DNA of 48,751 nucleotides, counting the filler, from Catajapyx aquilonaris (Eukaryota), in the NCBI GenBank assembly GCA_000934665.2. It is 2 parts of 2 records of this genome, joined end to end, with 100 filler letters (N's around TTAATTAATTAA, not from the genome) between each part and the next. Parts side by side here need not be neighbours in the genome. Positions count along the whole stretch, not along the records: positions 24,442 to 48,751 come from JYFJ02005538.1; 1 more part is not named here. One strand, given 5' to 3'. Made by a program: the position numbers and the translations under genes. Below are positions 5,658-46,339 of the stretch, piece after piece (the first letter of the stretch is position 1; each line of letters begins with the position of its first letter). The notes below the pieces were generated by a model. It did not search any database. It was not told the DNA's origin and worked only from the letters and a program-made list of their open reading frames with translations.

Positions 5658-6015
5658 CAGGGTGTTTCTTACTAGTATGGCCAACAGCAGTCAGCATATT
5701 CCTTGGGCCAAAACAAGTCAAAAATGTAGGGGGGGGANGTCGAGGGATCAACCATTAACGAGGTAGATGACCAGAAACATTGGCCAGTGGTTGCGTAAGG
5801 AGCAGGATAATCACTTCTGTAAAAAAAGGTGACCTCACAAATCCCAACAGTCATGATTATCATGCTCATATCCTGCTCCCTACGCAACCAATGTTTCTGG
5901 TCATCTACCTTGTTAATGGTTGATCCCTAGACATTTCTCTCCCCTACATTTTCGACTTGTTTTGACCATAGGAATACGCTGACAGCCATTGGTCATACCA
6001 GTAAGAAACACCCTG
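5658..6015. mobile_element. Tc1/mariner-type palindromic MITE; truncated relative follows at 6025-~6140
   Basis: TA|CAGGGTGTTTCTTACT ... AGTAAGAAACACCCTG|TA with long internal inverted arms. Confidence 0.9.
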
Positions 6016-23991: not shown

Positions 23992-24341
23992 TTCCGTTCG
24001 ATTTGCCTGAAAATCGGATATGTTGTAGCCCAGACCATCCTGATCAATGTTAGATAGGGACATTTCGAGGTAGGCCCTACAGGGAGCGTGCTATTGACCT
24101 CCAAAGGTCATATGGGATATGATCAAGTTTTCCGTTCGATTTGGCTGAAAATGGGATATGTTGCAGCCCAGACCATCCTGATCAATGTTGGATAGGGACA
24201 TTTCGAGGTAGGCCCTACAGGGAGCGTGCTATTGACCTCCAAAGGTCATATGGGATATGATCAAGTTTTCCGTTCGATTTGGCTGAAAATGGGATATGTT
24301 GCAGCCCAGACCATCCTGATCAATGTTGGATAGGGACATTT
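23992..24341 (+). repeat. 138-bp tandem repeat (about 2.5 units) running into the gap
   Basis: Unit starts TTCCGTTCGATTTG at 23992, 24130 and 24268; units almost identical. Confidence 0.92.
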
Positions 24342-24441
24342 NNNNNNNNNNNNNNNNNNNNNNNNNNNNNNNNNNNNNNNNNNNNTTAATTAATTAANNN
24401 NNNNNNNNNNNNNNNNNNNNNNNNNNNNNNNNNNNNNNNNN
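24342..24441. other. Assembly gap with artificial TTAATTAATTAA linker
   Basis: 44 N + TTAATTAATTAA (24386-24397, stop in all six frames) + 44 N = exactly 100 bp. Confidence 0.9.
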
Positions 24442-39053: not shown

Positions 39054-39444
39054 ATGCGGCAAGTATCCCTTGCACTCCTTCTGGGCCTGGCAACCCTCAC
39101 GTCCTGTCAGGTTCAGACAACACCTCAGCCCATATCGGAGCAGGTTAGCACACAGAACCCATGTTCAGCCCACCAGGTGTGCCATGAGTGTCTCCGAACC
39201 CCCACCTGCGCATGGTGCTCCCAGCCATTGTTCAACACCTCGGATGGAACCTCACTGCCAAGGTGTTACCAGCCAAACAGGCATGCACGAGACAGCTTCC
39301 CAGGCCTGCAGTGCCAAGCTGAATATGTTGTGAATGATGAGAACTTCAGAAGAACACTGAAAAATGAGGAGTTCCGGCGTGCCAGCTCTTACCAAGAGGC
39401 AGTGCAAATCAAGCCACAGCATGTCAGGTTGCGACTGCGTGTCA
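39054..39444 (+). CDS. mys: Integrin beta coding exon 1 (signal peptide, PSI)
   Basis: Acceptor TTCTGCAG|39044, ATG 39054, [19 protein letters not shown]...CAWC; donor A|GTAAGT. Confidence 0.92.
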
Positions 39445-42400
39445 GTAAGTGGTGTAATTCATTTGTAGCAAGAGCCAAGTACGCATTAAGGTGTGTTTAC
39501 ATGTGAGAGATTTGACAAGCTGAGCAAAATCTTCGCCAAGGCTGAAATAACAATTGATTTTCGCCTCAAACAATATTGGTTACTTGGGATACTCACCCTC
39601 GGCGCACCTTTAGTTCTGCAAAATTTGTGACATTAAAAAGAAGGTCAAGCGTGAATATTAATTCATCTTCATCATCTTACATGATTCACGACTTTTCCCA
39701 AAATATTGGGGTGCCAGCGGATAATGAGGAGGTCCTCGCTACCCTCACCTCACATGACCAATTTTTTAAAAAATTCTGGAGACTGGTCAGGTACTCGCAG
39801 AAATGGGGAGGATACAAAAGAGTGCAGACTGTTCGGGCTAGGCTGAATATTAATTAAGTGTTGTTAATGGTGTTTCAGTGTCTAAAGGGCATATCTTTTG
39901 CAGATGAGGCGTACAATCTGCATTTAGAGTATTCTCAGGCTCAGAATTATCCTGTGGATCTCTACTATTTGATGGACCTGTCCAAATCCATGGAAGATGA
40001 CAAGGAGAAGCTCTCGTCTCTTGGAGACCTGCTAGCACAGACTATGCAGAACATTACTTCAGACTTCAGACTGGGATTCGGAAGCTTTGTGGACAAGGTT
40101 GTCATGCCTTATGTTAGCACTGTCCCTAAAAAGTGAGTAATTTCTTATGTTATACTACCCTGAAGAGTTGATACACATATTCATATATGAATGTAACTTG
40201 TTTCACGTTATGAATCAGTGCTCGGATTGATGAACAGTTGGCAGTGCTGTTGCGCCATTAAAAGCCCAATCTGACCTGGTGGGGGAGTGGCCGCATTTTT
40301 AAAAATTTCAGCATTACATTGTGATAGGCTTGTGGACTTTGAGGGGGTCTACTTTTAAATGTTCTGACTTTATTTAACTACCGCTTCTGATTAATTGTGG
40401 GAGGAAACAGGAGAACCAATTGAAACTATTTTCCCATGAAAAAGTCCAGCTCAAAATCAAATTCAGGACCTCATGCAGAGGACTAAACCACTACACCATG
40501 GTGCCTACCTGTGGAAGGTCACTACTTGCTCACTGGCATAATTTTTAGCAAACAGAGAGTATCACCCCTATGCAGAGCTGGTGTGAGTACCACCACTGCA
40601 TTTAGGAATTGGCCAACTGGACCACTGCCCCCAAGGTCAAAAATGACTTTTCGAGCACTGATATGTATGTATGAGTACAGCAGTTATGGCAGAGGCGAAT
40701 TGAATTACTACTGAATATTGGCTTGGAAATATTCAAGAGCAATGAGTCAAATTGACAATCCCTAATGCATGACATTGAGGAGTTGACATTTCCTATGAAG
40801 TGTACATTTGCCTTCTCCCTGTAATAATTACAAAGCCTTGCACTATAGTGAAAAAAAGGTGGCATAATGCCAACGGTAACTTCCTAAAAGCCCATGATAA
40901 CAAGCCAGGGGAAGAAGTAATGTGCAATTACAGTTTGGGAAATTTTAGATTGAACCGTAAGAAATGGTTAGTGCATTGTATTAGTCAGTAAAAAGCTTCT
41001 TAACTTCATTAATGGAAGTACATAACAGGTACACCCACATCCACCCACTCACCTTCCTTGCCCTGACATACTTTGCAGGGGATGTGGTCATTGCAATTTT
41101 ATCCTTACGTCTTAATTGATAGGGAGAAGGGAAGTGCCACTGACTGCTCCTTGCCATAACTGCATGTCGAAGGCACTTGATAGAAGTAAGAGGTTTTACT
41201 TGCATTGTGAAAGAGTGCTACCATTTACATTTTGACAAGAAGAAAGCCGAGTTCAAAAAATAAGCAAGTCAATTTTCCATTGTGAAGTGATTATTACAAA
41301 TTAAATTTTTATTAACAAACGCTAATTGAAAGCTCTTTCTCCTTCTGAATTATAATAACAATAATGATAATGTAGGATTTGCAACATGTTGAATCACTGC
41401 TTGCATTTTTATGGCAATACTTCCAGTTAATTTTCATGAAGCAATCACTGTTGACCCAAACATAATGGTCTTCTGTAATTGTATATTTTTGTTTTTTTAA
41501 AAAAAGGAAAAGGGCAATGATTATGCCTAATAGTGGCTCTGATGTAATATGAGCTTGCTCTTTAATTTCCTATCCAAGGCTGAAGGAACCCTGCGATGGC
41601 TGCAAGGCACCCTACGGCTATCGTAATCACATGTCACTCAGTGTCAATACATCCCGATTTGCAGTAAGTGACAGGTTCACACCTTCACCTAATCAACTGT
41701 TTTTCACTTTTCAGCCGAACTTGGGGAAATCTTAACCTGTACCCATAACCTTCTGACCCTGATCAAACCCAAGCTTCCCAACTTGAAAACAAAAAATTGT
41801 GAAAGGAAAATCTTCAAATCAAATCTTCAATTTCTTTTTAGTCTGGAGCATCCCTGCCTGGGATGCGCTGCTCCCTACGGCTATCGTAATATTATGTCCC
41901 TAAGTCAAGATACGCATAGATTCGCTGTAAGTCAACCGAAACGTACAAACCCGCCTGTTTTTTTATTATTATTATTATTATCGTATTTTATCTCATTCCA
42001 TCTCTCGCATTGCCTGCGCCGCAAGTCCAGCCCAGCATGAAATTTTTTGGATGGACACGGAACAAAAGCCTTGTGTGTGCTCAATTGGACCTGCCCAACA
42101 GTCAGTCCTCCTCTGCACCCATCTCCCATATTGTTGCCTCCTACTCCTTGACCCACAACGGTGGTTTACATTTAAGTGCAGGTATGTCAATTGACATGAC
42201 ACCTCATGCTGCAGTGATATCTGCATTAAATTGCCTTGTTCAGGCTGGCACGCAATCATGTCACCACTCGGACACTTGAAGAGAGCAACCCAAATTTCTA
42301 GTCATGTCAGACTAATAGATATCACTGCATCAGCTGTTGGAAATCAGTTGGCATTCCTCTAATTAAAGGGATCACTAACAAATCAAGGGAAACTTAATGC

Positions 42401-45400
42401 ATCAAGTACATTTAAGTTCAATAGCTGAAACATGATATCAAAAATGTTTCGTACAGTATGGAATGCAGAACACAAAGTTTAATACTGTTATGACAGCCTC
42501 GAAATTCAGGGAGGAAAGGCGAGCGCTTGAGGACGGAGACTTTGCCCTCCCCCTCTCCACATTCCCACCAAACGTAGCATCTACTTGTGCGCCAACACCA
42601 CATGTTTTTTAAGGCTCTAACATAAGAAGCCACTTGTGCTGTGTAAACGCTGCCTGAAGCTAACCCTCCATGTTTATTTGAGTTGAGAGGGGCTCAAAGT
42701 TAAAGTTCTGTTATTTTTTATTAGTTTCATTACCAGTTCCTTGCTAGTGCTGTTTTTTGCTATTAGCAGGAAAGAATCGATTCTAACTGATGACTCGATT
42801 CTGCCTTTTGTTTAAACAAAAAATGGGGAAAAATACATTCCTCAAAAAACACTGACCAAGACCAGTGATTTTGTTGTCCTTTGTGTACGTTTGTGTTTTG
42901 TGTACTTTTGTGTCTGCATCCTGTTTTGCATGATTTATTATTATTATTTCAAGGTTATATTATGGATAATTATTATTATATTATGATTTGTTCAATGTTT
43001 CATTTGTTGAGAAACCAGGACAGGGCTACACATGCTCTTTTTTTGGCACATGAAGGGGACACAAATATAGTTTGCATTTCATTTGTGAATCTAACGGTCA
43101 ACCTCTGTGCAATTTTGTCAATCCTGTCTTGTACTTTTGCCCAATTCTAACTGGATAGGGTTATGACTGCTCAAAGTCATTAATTGCAATAATGCTCTGA
43201 AGCAAAAGAAGTGAGAGGCTCTCCGAGTCCACAAGCGAAGCTGTTGCTGCCACCTAATATTTATACATGTTTTTATCTCCCTCCCCTTGCCTTGCTGCAA
43301 CCCAAAATAGGGTGAAGTCCACAGTGCAGCTGTGTCTGGAAATTTGGATGCTCCCGAAGGTGGCTTTGATGCCATCATGCAAGCCATTGTGTGCAGGAAG
43401 GAGATTGGATGGCGGGAAAAAGCAAGGCGGCTTCTGGTGTTCTCCACTGATGCCAGCTTCCATTATGCTGGGGACGGGAAGGTGAAAGATTTAACATTTT
43501 ACCATTTTAGTACTATCCCCACCTTCCCCACCTGTTAGTGAGGGTCATATCACATTGTAATTTGCTTACAGTTGGGCGGAATAATCAAACCAAACGATGG
43601 GATATGTCACATGGCCAACCGAATGTACACACATTCAACAGAACAGGATTACCCATCTGTAGCTCAGGTATGATAACATTTTTTTTGTTTCTGTGGTGAT
43701 TCTATTTGGTACAAACACCAACTGCACTCTGTTAAGTGCACATTTGTGTCGGTATAAGTGTGGTATGTGTATTGTAAATCTAAAAGGCCACAGACCTATG
43801 TGAAGTACCCTAACCGTTATTATTTAATAGTGAAAGTAATATATGGCATTAAGGTGAATATTCATAGGAATGGTTGTTACTTTCAGGTGAACCAGAAAGT
43901 GAAGGAGAATGGGATCAACTTGATTTTTGCAGTGACAGAGGAACAGATCAACATCTACAATTATCTGAAGGAGAGCGTTGAAGGAGCATCAGCTGGACAG
44001 CTGTCTGCAGACTCCTCCAATGTCGTAGAGCTTGTCCTGGATCAGTACAATGTTAGTTGAAGCAGTAGCTGTTTTTCAGGATCTTTCCTTTAGTTTTGTG
44101 GCAGGGGAGGTCATGGCCAGAGCAAAGGGTTGTTCTTCGATTACATTGAGGCGAACTTCAATCTTATGGTGAAGTTCGGCTGAAGTTGTGATAGACGGTG
44201 CAATGAAATGTTATAATTAAATTAACCTTCTGGAACACTGTGCATTATAATTTTTGATATTCTTTTATCAAAATGGTGTATTGCTCAAACCTGACACTAA
44301 ATGTTTTTTTGCAGAAAATCACGTCAACAGTGGAGATGAAGGACACTGCATCAAGTGCAGTGAAGGTGTCGTACTTCTCTAGCTGCTTTGGTGGAGGTCC
44401 ACAGAAGCAGACCAGCAAGTGTGATGGTTTCAAGGTGGGAGATGTGATCAAATTCACCGCCAAGATTGAGGTCACAAAATGCCCTGAGAACCCTAACGAG
44501 TGGAATCAAAGATTTGAAATCTTCCCTATTGCTATCAATGAATCCCTGGTGGTCGACCTGGAGATGATCTGTGACTGTCCTTGCGAGAAGCCAAACTATC
44601 CTGTGAGTCTCATCCCAAGTTGTGAAAATTTTATTGGAATTACTTTCAGTTGCACAAAGACATGTGAGGATGCATGAAACAGTTTCAAATTATTCCTGAG
44701 CCATGTATTTCACAAGAAGAGTCCTCTGTTATGAATTGAAGCCTTTATAAGTGGATCAATTCAATGTTTCACTTGCATTAGCACATAGCATGTTATGAAA
44801 ATAACATTGATTCATATTATTTCTTGCAGGGATATGAAGCACATTCTCCAGCATGTAACTTTTATGGGTCTCTCCAATGTGGTGTGTGTGCATGTGATGC
44901 GGTGCACTTTGGCCGCCATTGTGAGTGCAACACAACTCATCCAGGTGGCGAGCAGAGCTTGGTCGAAGGTTGCCGTCCAGACAACACCAGTGAAGCAATC
45001 TGCTCAAACCGGGGCATATGTGAATGTGGGCAGTGCAAGTGCTACCCTCGCAAGCAACCATCTGAAACCGTGGATGGGCCTTTCTGTGAATGCGACAACT
45101 TCAGCTGCAACCGCAACAGGGGTCTGCTGTGTGGAGGGCGTGGCAAGTGCATCTGTGGGAAGTGCAAGTGTGACGACAGCTGGATTGGTGACGCTTGTGA
45201 GTGTTTGAACTCGACAGCTACCTGCATTGCACCAGAGACAAATCTGGAGTGTTCTGGAAAAGGGAAATGTGTTTGTGGAGCTTGTGAGTGCTTCGAAACT
45301 GATGAGGGGAGATACTCTGGAGCCTACTGTCATCTTTGCCCAGTAAGTATTTGCTGAAACACACACATGTAATGCACATCATTTGAATTAATTTAATAGT

Positions 45401-46339
45401 AAGAGAGTGTTTTTTTTAAATTAGCAATTTCTAACATTCTGCAGTTGAATATATCTGCATGTTATTGTTTTTTTTGTACATAACTACTGTGATATCTGAA
45501 AAGTTCCATGAGTGGTCAAACACTAAAGCAAAACTTACGTTTGTCATTTTAATTTTAGACATGCAAGGAGCAGTGTGACCAGCTACGTTACTGCGTACAT
45601 TGCCAACAGTTTGAGGAAAACCCTGAGAAGAACTGCAGCTTGTGCCCATTTGTACCAATCGAAGTTGATGTAATCAAAGGTAATGTTAATACTGTATCTG
45701 TTTACCTGCAGAATATTTAAGGAAATTATTGCCATTATGTTACACTATTGTACTGTTAGGGCAGTCCTCACGTGACCAGGTTGCATACCAAAAAATGTGG
45801 TTTGCAATAAATAAACACTATTTTGTGTCATATTTAACTTGCCATTATACATTCTAGTGTATAACATAGGTTACACATACTTCGCAGCTTTTGTGTAAAA
45901 ATCGAACTCATTTTACACATTACTTTGCAGAGGATGAAGGGAACAAGCAAGTGTGTTCATACATCGATGATGACAATTGCCGATACACCTTTGCCTATGC
46001 GGAAGTCCCTGGTGAGAAGATTTATGTGGAAGTGCAGAAGACAAAGGAGTGCCCTCCAGAGATCAACATTCTTGGGATTGTCCTGGGAGTGATTGCAGCC
46101 ATCGTATTGGTTGGTCTTGCCTTCCTATTACTTTGGAAGGTCCTCACCACCATACATGACCGTCGGGAATTTGCCAAGTTCGAGAAGGAGAGAATGAATG
46201 CCAAATGGGATACGGTAGGCAACAATTAATTTATATGAAACCAGATGAAACTTACGCAATTATTCTCTTCCAGGGTGAAAATCCAATCTACAAACAAGCT
46301 ACTTCTACGTTCAAGAATCCAACTTATGGTGGAAAATGA
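39054..46339 (+). CDS. mys: Integrin beta subunit, betaPS/myospheroid-like; 802 aa per isoform; join(39054..39444,39904..40132,[41579..41663 or 41842..41926],43311..43481,43572..43667,43887..44051,44315..44602,44830..45342,45559..45679,45931..46214,46274..46339)
   Basis: All introns GT-AG and phase-consistent (2409 nt). Signal peptide, PSI domain, [30 protein letters not shown], cysteine-rich I-EGF repeats, TM helix, HDRREF, NPIY and NPTY motifs. Confidence 0.95.
39663..39760 (-). repeat. Intronic retroposon 3' fragment related to 14610-14700
   Basis: Shared TTTCCCAAA...GGGGTGCCAGCGGATAATGAGGAGGTCCT next to a CAT-rich run. Confidence 0.55.
39904..40132 (+). CDS. mys: Integrin beta coding exon 2 (beta-I domain, MIDAS)
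   Basis: [20 protein letters not shown]...[19 protein letters not shown]; donor AA|GTGAGT (phase 2). Confidence 0.96.
41579..41663 (+). CDS. mys: Integrin beta alternative exon A (85 nt): (K)[28 protein letters not shown]
   Basis: TTTCCTATCCAAG| acceptor, GCA|GTAAGT donor; phase 2 to phase 0; not in the ORF track. Confidence 0.92.
41842..41926 (+). CDS. mys: Integrin beta alternative exon B (85 nt): (N)[28 protein letters not shown]
   Basis: TTTCTTTTTAG| acceptor, GCT|GTAAGT donor; same length and phases as exon A. Confidence 0.92.
43311..43481 (+). CDS. mys: Integrin beta exon (beta-I domain)
   Basis: [24 protein letters not shown]...FHYAGDGK. Confidence 0.95.
43572..43667 (+). CDS. mys: Integrin beta exon (beta-I domain)
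   Basis: [32 protein letters not shown]; not in the ORF track. Confidence 0.94.
43887..44051 (+). CDS. mys: Integrin beta exon (end of beta-I domain)
   Basis: [17 protein letters not shown]...[17 protein letters not shown]. Confidence 0.95.
44315..44602 (+). CDS. mys: Integrin beta exon (hybrid domain)
   Basis: [10 protein letters not shown]...[15 protein letters not shown]. Confidence 0.95.
44830..45342 (+). CDS. mys: Integrin beta exon (I-EGF repeats)
   Basis: [45 protein letters not shown]. Confidence 0.96.
45559..45679 (+). CDS. mys: Integrin beta exon (beta-tail domain)
   Basis: [40 protein letters not shown]; phase 0 to phase 1; not in the ORF track. Confidence 0.9.
45931..46214 (+). 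CDS. mys: Integrin beta exon (beta-tail, TM, proximal cytoplasmic tail)
   Basis: [49 protein letters not shown]. Confidence 0.96.
46274..46339 (+). CDS. mys: Integrin beta last coding exon
   Basis: [21 protein letters not shown] after a 59-nt intron. Confidence 0.95.
   Translation, partial: GENPIYKQATSTFKNPTYGGK

Follow-up and report, generated by a model that had tools for sequence, protein, structure and literature searches.

We analysed a 48,751-nucleotide stretch of the genome of Catajapyx aquilonaris (assembly GCA_000934665.2), referred to below as the window, in which the plus-strand open frames from 39.0 to 46.4 kb encode what reads as the beta subunit of an integrin. Within this gene, which is of the beta-PS (myospheroid) type, two similar exons, here called A and B, lie in tandem between constitutive exons 2 and 4 (Table 1). 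They are very probably alternatives of which each transcript takes one, and they appear to correspond to exons 4A and 4B of Drosophila myospheroid (mys).

Pfam searches with single exons recovered PSI_integrin (1.8e-10), Integrin_beta (1.7e-29 and 6.2e-26), EGF_integrin (2.9e-28) and Integrin_b_cyt (3.8e-11), and a match to Integrin_B_tail that lies below the curated cutoff (31.6 versus 33.6 bits). The order of the domains is that of a beta subunit: PSI, beta-I (VWA) with its DxSxS motif, EGF repeats, beta-tail, transmembrane helix and a cytoplasmic tail with NPxY. When exon 2 was used as the query, 1,227 of 1,261 candidates proved to be integrin beta relatives, and the best 120 of these were examined. 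The protein encoded by this gene is itself absent from the searched collections, where the best matches reached 87% identity for exon 2 and 54% for the EGF exon. The closest full-length homologue among the matches listed (P0040) is 64% identical over the whole protein, so that none of the sampled insects is close, and it carries an exon of equal length of the K-type defined below. P0040 also aligns over its full length with the human integrin beta-1 and beta-3 chains, the best solved relatives (E 1e-193 to 1e-200). Overall, the protein is about 60% identical to the beta-PS subunits of insects, Daphnia and copepods alike. A whole-protein tree of 23 rows, the beta-nu paralogue not among them, places it in a group with these three (87% support in the Shimodaira-Hasegawa-like approximate likelihood ratio test, SH-aLRT), within which it has no supported position; the protein thus places the organism in Pancrustacea and no more finely.

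Direct reading of the region agrees with the preliminary description of this DNA, which had reported two intact 85-nt exons, 178 nt apart and in the same phase, with GTAAGT donors; both acceptors are AG. The 28-residue peptides that it quoted are likewise obtained when each exon is translated from its second base (P0001 and P0002). Exon 2 ends at 40132 with the first two bases (AA) of a codon, and the first base of the alternative exon completes this codon as AAG (Lys) with exon A or as AAT (Asn) with exon B; both exons end in phase 0. The two exons are identical at 57 of 85 nucleotides and 20 of 28 residues, while their ungapped flanks have only 19 of 60 and 20 of 61 nucleotides in common, which is chance similarity. 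In a tblastn search of the whole window the exons find each other at E 7.5e-11, and no third copy was found: the next best match has an E value of 0.12 or worse, and the window therefore holds exactly two copies. Like length, compatible splice sites in the same frame and similarity of sequence, all found here, are among the features by which mutually exclusive exons are recognised in the available excerpt of Pillmann et al. 2011 (PMC3228551). Downstream, the donor of exon 4 was seen in a splice joint (43479>43570), and its acceptor is inferred from an AG at 43309-43310 together with the frame.

Table 1. Coordinates of the alternative exons and associated features in the window
Feature	Position	Strand	Remarks
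Coding span of the integrin beta-PS (myospheroid-type) gene	39054..46339	+	11 coding exons, 802 codons with A or B; from splice joints, open frame and Pfam
Constitutive exon 2, start of the beta-I/VWA domain with DxSxS metal site	39904..40132	+	joints 39444>39904 and 40132>41579; Pfam Integrin_beta positions 1-64
Alternative exon A, Lys-junction type (K-type)	41579..41663	+	AG acceptor seen used in a spliced contig; K-type marks Asp6, His17, Asn23
18-nt core in exon A	41610..41627	+	identical to the copy in exon B
178-nt intron separating exons A and B	41664..41841	+	no joint; covered by the contig that carries the exon 2-A junction
Alternative exon B, Asn-junction type (N-type)	41842..41926	+	in starred clade of 7 N-type exons; pN 0.11-0.28 versus pS 0.54-1.17 to N-type orthologues
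18-nt core in exon B	41873..41890	+	contains TAA 41887-41889 (stop on double inclusion)
Constitutive exon 4, beta-I domain continued	43311..43479	+	Pfam Integrin_beta positions 99-153

In the gene model derived from the splice joints, inclusion of either exon alone gives an open frame of 802 codons that stops at 46337-46339. When both are included, the TAA within exon B ends the frame at codon 251, and when neither is included a stop at 43582-43584 ends it at codon 268. These early stops confirm at the level of sequence the earlier argument that including both exons or neither shifts the frame, so that the 802 codons are reached with one exon only. Moreover, both premature stops lie well upstream of the last junction, and the exon length of 85 nt is not a multiple of three, which fits the class of mutually exclusive exons that relies on frame incompatibility and nonsense-mediated decay. 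A special role of this TAA as a "safety stop" was considered and rejected, because the second exon has a shifted-frame stop in 8 of 11 genomic pairs, which is about the chance level.

The alternative exon exactly fills the gap, positions 65-98 of the Integrin_beta profile, between the matches of exons 2 and 4. A phmmer search of solved chains with the 28-residue peptide gave no match, and the segment was mapped through the homologue P0040. By this route the junction residue and the 28 exon residues correspond to A172-N204 of mature human beta-3 (chain 8t2u_B), and the two cysteines of the exon to beta-3 C177 and C184. The arthropod loop is four residues shorter, with two residues between the cysteines versus six in beta-3. 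In the portion available of a preprint on alphaVbeta3 (PMC11463590), the specificity-determining loop comprises residues 158-190, with the C177-C184 disulfide at the ligand-binding face, and the residues of beta-3 that contact ligand include Cys177, Met180 and Thr182. It follows that the exon encodes the C-terminal 19 residues of the loop, disulfide loop included, plus 14 residues past it. Both the alignment and, as far as that text goes, the published definition bear out the earlier claim that the segment lies on the disulfide-closed part of the specificity-determining loop. The accessible text of a paper on coral integrins (PMC2397394) describes the C8-C9 loop as implicated in ligand specificity, alpha-beta pairing and signalling, and cites loop-swap work on vertebrate subunits (Takagi et al. 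1997 and 2002). The vertebrate loop and the arthropod exon segment are the same structural element, which is varied between paralogous genes in vertebrates but by alternative exons in arthropods.

The preliminary description had drawn a parallel with exons 4A and 4B of Drosophila mys. According to a review (PMC9218073, consulted as an excerpt), these are alternative fourth exons, one of which enters each mys transcript, and they encode 29 residues in the region that sets ligand preference in human integrins; the review adds that homologous regions have been reported from the medfly and other insects. Zusman et al. 1993 and Graner et al. 1998 are cited for the two exons in the passages available from PMC9218073 and PMC2148222, and the latter, citing Graner et al. 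1998, reports that the ligands of the alphaPS2m8/betaPS4A form include laminin chain Wb. The pair described here and mys 4A/4B have in common the gene family member, the place in the beta-I domain, the 29 variable residues counted with the junction codon, and the tandem arrangement of the exons; in Drosophila one of the two exons is used.

This parallel extends to many other arthropods. Among ten clusters examined, pairs of RefSeq X1/X2 isoforms that differ in this segment only were found in 15 arthropod species: two mayflies, two termites, three Daphnia, Tigriopus, two damselflies, Schistocerca, an adelgid, a caddisfly, Hermetia and Drosophila busckii. These pairs are automatic annotations. 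In 14 of the 15 species the junction residue is Lys or Arg in one isoform and Asn or Ser in the other, as in the window, and we refer to the corresponding exons as K-type and N-type; Tigriopus has Lys in both. The two D. busckii isoforms (P0092 and P0204) show this split of types as well: they diverge in the same 29 residues, one with a Lys and the other with an Asn junction.

Type-specific residues accompany the junction, as a tally over 14 K-type and 14 N-type exons shows. Position 6, which lies in the loop, is Asp in 11 K-type exons and Pro, Thr or Ser in 12 N-type exons, and position 9, after the second cysteine, is Glu in 10 and Ala in 8, respectively. Position 17 is His in 12 of the K-type and Val or Ile in 12 of the N-type exons, position 23 is Asn in 9 and Asp in 10, and position 26 is Arg in 3 versus 11. 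In outline, the K-type combines an acidic loop residue, a charged residue past the second cysteine and an NHM motif, and the N-type an uncharged loop, Ala past the cysteine and the patterns N-[VI]-M and D-T-x-R-F. The five positions read Asp, Lys, His, Asn and Arg in exon A and Leu, Ala, Ile, Asp and Arg in exon B. These residues therefore identify exon A as K-type and exon B as N-type, and Leu in the loop of exon B sets it apart from the 12 N-type exons with Pro, Thr or Ser. The contrast between a charged and an uncharged loop, noted earlier for this gene, proves to be a conserved difference between the types, as the tallies at positions 6 and 9 indicate. Similarly, the isoform pairs, the published descriptions of 4A/4B and the exon tree described below turn the parallel with mys from analogy into homology. 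A search of open-access papers, supplements excluded, found none that describes the pair outside insects.

Copepods have a pair that is like the present one in its tandem 85-nt exons, its place and its borders, but unlike it in having a Lys junction in both copies. This holds for Tigriopus californicus, whose two copies (P0160 and P0024) pair together in the exon tree with support of 84/79, and for four metagenome loci (L001, L005, L006 and L007). The copepod pair may represent an independent duplication or a diverged form. The second copepod-like copy carries an x-H/N-I-M motif that is reminiscent of the N-type. A different arrangement was seen at four related metagenome loci (L039, L040, L041 and L042, with the exon at 5797, 5746, 629 and 5758), where a single Asn-junction exon lies about 85 nt past exon 2 and no K-type copy is present in the DNA examined; these may represent a lineage that keeps one exon.

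The history of the two types was assessed with a maximum-likelihood tree of the 28 exon residues, the junction residue being left out. Its 36 rows comprise the pairs from the 15 species, the pair from the window and four single outgroup exons. Exon B belongs to a clade of seven N-type exons that includes those of the adelgid, the caddisfly, Hermetia, Drosophila and two mayflies (support 97/92). The junction label changes five times on the tree versus about 12 times when shuffled, and none of 500 shuffles was as low. An approximately unbiased (AU) test was compatible with uniting all 15 N-type rows, those of Daphnia among them, in one clade (p 0.31). The exons of a sea spider, a mite, an isopod and a sea urchin all look K-type, and the K-type is the older-looking of the two.

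Genomic order provides a second line of evidence. A scan of metagenome contigs yielded 216 confirmed relatives, of which 80 loci were kept, and 10 of these 80 contain tandem pairs whose acceptors are AG and whose donors are GT or GC. In six of the ten the K-type exon precedes the N-type exon, as it does in the window (L009, L011, L016, L028, L030 and L051); the peptides of L016 are those of Daphnia, and those of L009 and L011 match peptides of termites and mayflies. The remaining four are the copepod-like loci with two Lys junctions. The N-type clade and the recurrent K-then-N order together indicate that the duplication is old rather than recent. The proposed check by phylogeny thus points to an ancient pair for exon B, which clusters by exon type, while exon A was not placed. 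To judge from these sequences, the pair most likely predates the split between branchiopods and hexapods.

Both copies have been maintained. Nonsynonymous differences per site (pN) to orthologous exons range from 0.17 to 0.28 for exon A and from 0.11 to 0.28 for exon B, while synonymous differences (pS) are saturated at 0.54-1.26, and purifying selection therefore acts on both. Exon B is closer to N-type exons than to K-type exons (pN 0.11-0.28 versus 0.27-0.39) and is 82% identical to a mayfly N-type exon.

We put at about 0.85 the probability that exons A and B are a conserved mutually exclusive pair of the arthropod integrin beta-PS gene, orthologous to exons 4A and 4B of Drosophila mys. 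Each mRNA would take one of the two exons to encode an 802-residue beta subunit, and the two isoforms would differ only in the 29 residues that match beta-3 172-204, namely the end of the loop with its two-residue disulfide loop, followed by a strand and a turn. Exon B would be spliced in this organism as exon A is, and transcripts with both exons or with neither would be removed by nonsense-mediated decay. By analogy with what is reported for Drosophila, the two isoforms may prefer different ligands or alpha subunits, or may be activated differently.

One part of the two exons may have had a history of its own. They share an 18-nt core that, as noted earlier, is identical even at wobble positions and spans six identical codons in a row. 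A run of six has P 0.017 in 200,000 simulations with the gene's own codon usage, and over the whole exons the same codon is used at 11 of 19 shared degenerate residues versus 6.5 expected from that usage (P 0.026); both tests were picked after the pattern had been seen. Partner exons within a lineage also match each other more than shuffled partners do (217 versus 207 identical positions in 13 lineages, P 0.026). Most of this excess stems from position 14, which is Phe or Tyr and matches in 10 of 13 lineages versus 6.3 expected, and K/N partner matching within lineages was noted at positions 14, 15 and 28.

These figures could be taken to mean that the core alone was homogenised by a short gene-conversion tract, or is kept by a shared RNA element such as an exonic splicing enhancer, in a pair that is otherwise ancient. 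We regard this as unlikely. Besides the post hoc choice of the codon tests, the eight other genomic pairs show no general excess of shared codons (10/16, 6/19, 8/17, 8/20, 5/16, 7/17, 3/12 and 3/15), and the termite-like pair L009 encodes the same core residues with codons that differ at 3 of 6 positions. An 18-nt stretch is very short for a gene-conversion tract, which counts against conversion of the core alone. A search of both strands that tolerated three mismatches found no further copy of the core elsewhere in the window, and no complementary partner of it was found there either.

The use of different codons for the same core residues in L009 points to co-evolution at the level of the protein, and this is the explanation that we favour for the likeness of partners within lineages. 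The broader proposal that partner exons of an ancient pair have evolved non-independently for hundreds of millions of years, through recurrent short-tract conversion or a shared exonic RNA element, is similarly doubtful. Of the three ideas offered for the core in the preliminary description, an independent or recent duplication is disfavoured by the exon tree, although the AU test discussed below (p 0.093) tempers this, and conversion and a splicing element are each weakly possible at P values of about 0.02-0.03.

Several observations weigh against the reading of A and B as an ancient, mutually exclusive pair, and the first of these come from transcripts. Contigs from one public run (X1, its kind not on record) are spliced and provide ten GT..AG joints across the gene. 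One of them joins 39444>39904 and 40132>41579, and the acceptor of exon A is thus used. Of the four junctions proposed earlier as a check, this last one was seen, while 41663>43311, 40132>41842 and 41926>43311 are not among the X1 joints listed; contigs drop rare forms, and the absence of these joints therefore carries no information on whether exon B is used. Accordingly, the donor of exon A and both the acceptor and the donor of exon B have no junction among these joints. The contig that carries the exon 2-A junction is, furthermore, unspliced from 41579 to 42152, running through the donor of exon A, the short intron and exon B, and therefore the transcripts do not establish full mutual exclusivity here. 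Two further contigs of low depth cover 42124-43034. The pattern suggests that the upstream intron is removed before the downstream intron.

Exon B could accordingly be a conserved-looking relic, unused or rarely used, so that the gene effectively makes the exon A isoform only. The only spliced contig to reach the region does join exon 2 to exon A, and some lineages appear to be single-copy, among them the four loci with one Asn-junction exon; at several other loci the exon is fused to the next. However, exon B has an intact frame, an AG acceptor, a GTAAGT donor and a better pyrimidine tract than exon A, and it keeps the type marks Ala9, Ile17, Asp23 and Arg26. Its identity with the mayfly exon and its low pN with saturated synonymous sites are not what long disuse would permit. 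We therefore consider a relic quite improbable.

The exon tree also has its limits as evidence for an ancient pair: it has only 28 columns, carries stars on only 4 of 29 inner branches, and leaves exon A unplaced among the K-type and outgroup rows. Indeed, a sister relationship of exons A and B of the window, although its log-likelihood is 13.4 lower, narrowly escapes rejection in an AU test (p 0.093 at a 5% threshold). Nevertheless, it is very improbable that their likeness reflects a recent duplication in this lineage or gene conversion of the whole exon, as this result, the excess of shared codons and the 20 of 28 identical residues (at the high end of 13 lineages, range 13-21) might be read, because exon B groups with N-type exons of other orders and not with exon A, the junction base, an independent character, follows the type, six other genomic loci have the same K-then-N order, synonymous sites are far from identical between A and B (pS 0.60), and the flanking intron sequence is at chance similarity.

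The final point against a mutually exclusive pair concerns how the choice is made, in that searches of inverted pairs, of RNA folding and of complements of the core in the window found no cis element that enforces it. Both introns are ordinary GT-AG introns, and the one of 178 nt is long enough for splicing. Steric hindrance by a distant branch point accounts for exclusive exon choice in alpha-tropomyosin. A branch-like CTAAT does lie 26 nt from the donor of exon A, with three AGs between it and the acceptor of exon B; these AGs, in a 178-nt intron, leave steric hindrance unsupported, and this candidate was rejected. The same mechanism is described for OGDH in the available part of PMC7969005. 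We also observed that CTAAT, a pyrimidine tract and an AG follow one another at 41689-41714, 26-50 nt past the donor of exon A, with the look of a decoy 3' splice site; its use would be out of frame and no joint to it is listed.

Competing RNA pairings are a further mechanism of mutually exclusive splicing, known from Dscam and srp (PMC4691838). Between 40133 and 43310 there are 27 inverted pairs of 11-23 nt, none of which ties one site to both exons in the manner of docking and selector sequences. The predicted fold of 41560-41945 shows no unusual stability (z -1.5; 7 of 100 shuffled sequences reach it). Exclusivity may instead result from the frame rule, with decay of the wrong forms, combined with regulated competition between the two acceptors.

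Other features of the region were noted in passing. One contig carries 79 letters before 39042 that do not match the stretch and probably represent an upstream non-coding exon of the integrin gene. Near 44050 a donor occurs in two contig forms, one with the joint 44051>44315 (GT..AG) and one with 44050>44315 and one other letter between; three single-base differences lie close by, at 44350, 44371 and 44476, and the whole has the look of allelic or strain variation within the run. In positions 1-39000, upstream of the integrin gene, a second gene was not recognised: the 11 long open frames tested there have no Pfam match above cutoff, and two weak hits are at chance level. A 138-nt tandem repeat of 2.5 copies (98% match) lies at 23992-24341 and abuts the runs of N at 24342-24385 and 24398-24441.

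The pair is real, and since its orthologue was described in Drosophila in the 1990s and is annotated in many arthropods, it is already known; the finding opens no new question. It does illustrate that a functional alternative-splicing device can be recovered from raw sequence alone. Its additions are modest and consist of the type-defining residues, the conserved order of the exons, the reach to Daphnia-like crustaceans and a weak hint of co-evolution between partners. The type-defining positions 6, 9, 17, 23 and 26 could guide mutagenesis, position 6 being aligned with the ligand contact Thr182 of beta-3. For the beta-PS family, the mys 4A/4B pair, its two types and their genomic order extend past insects to Daphnia-like crustaceans and to the genome of C. 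aquilonaris.

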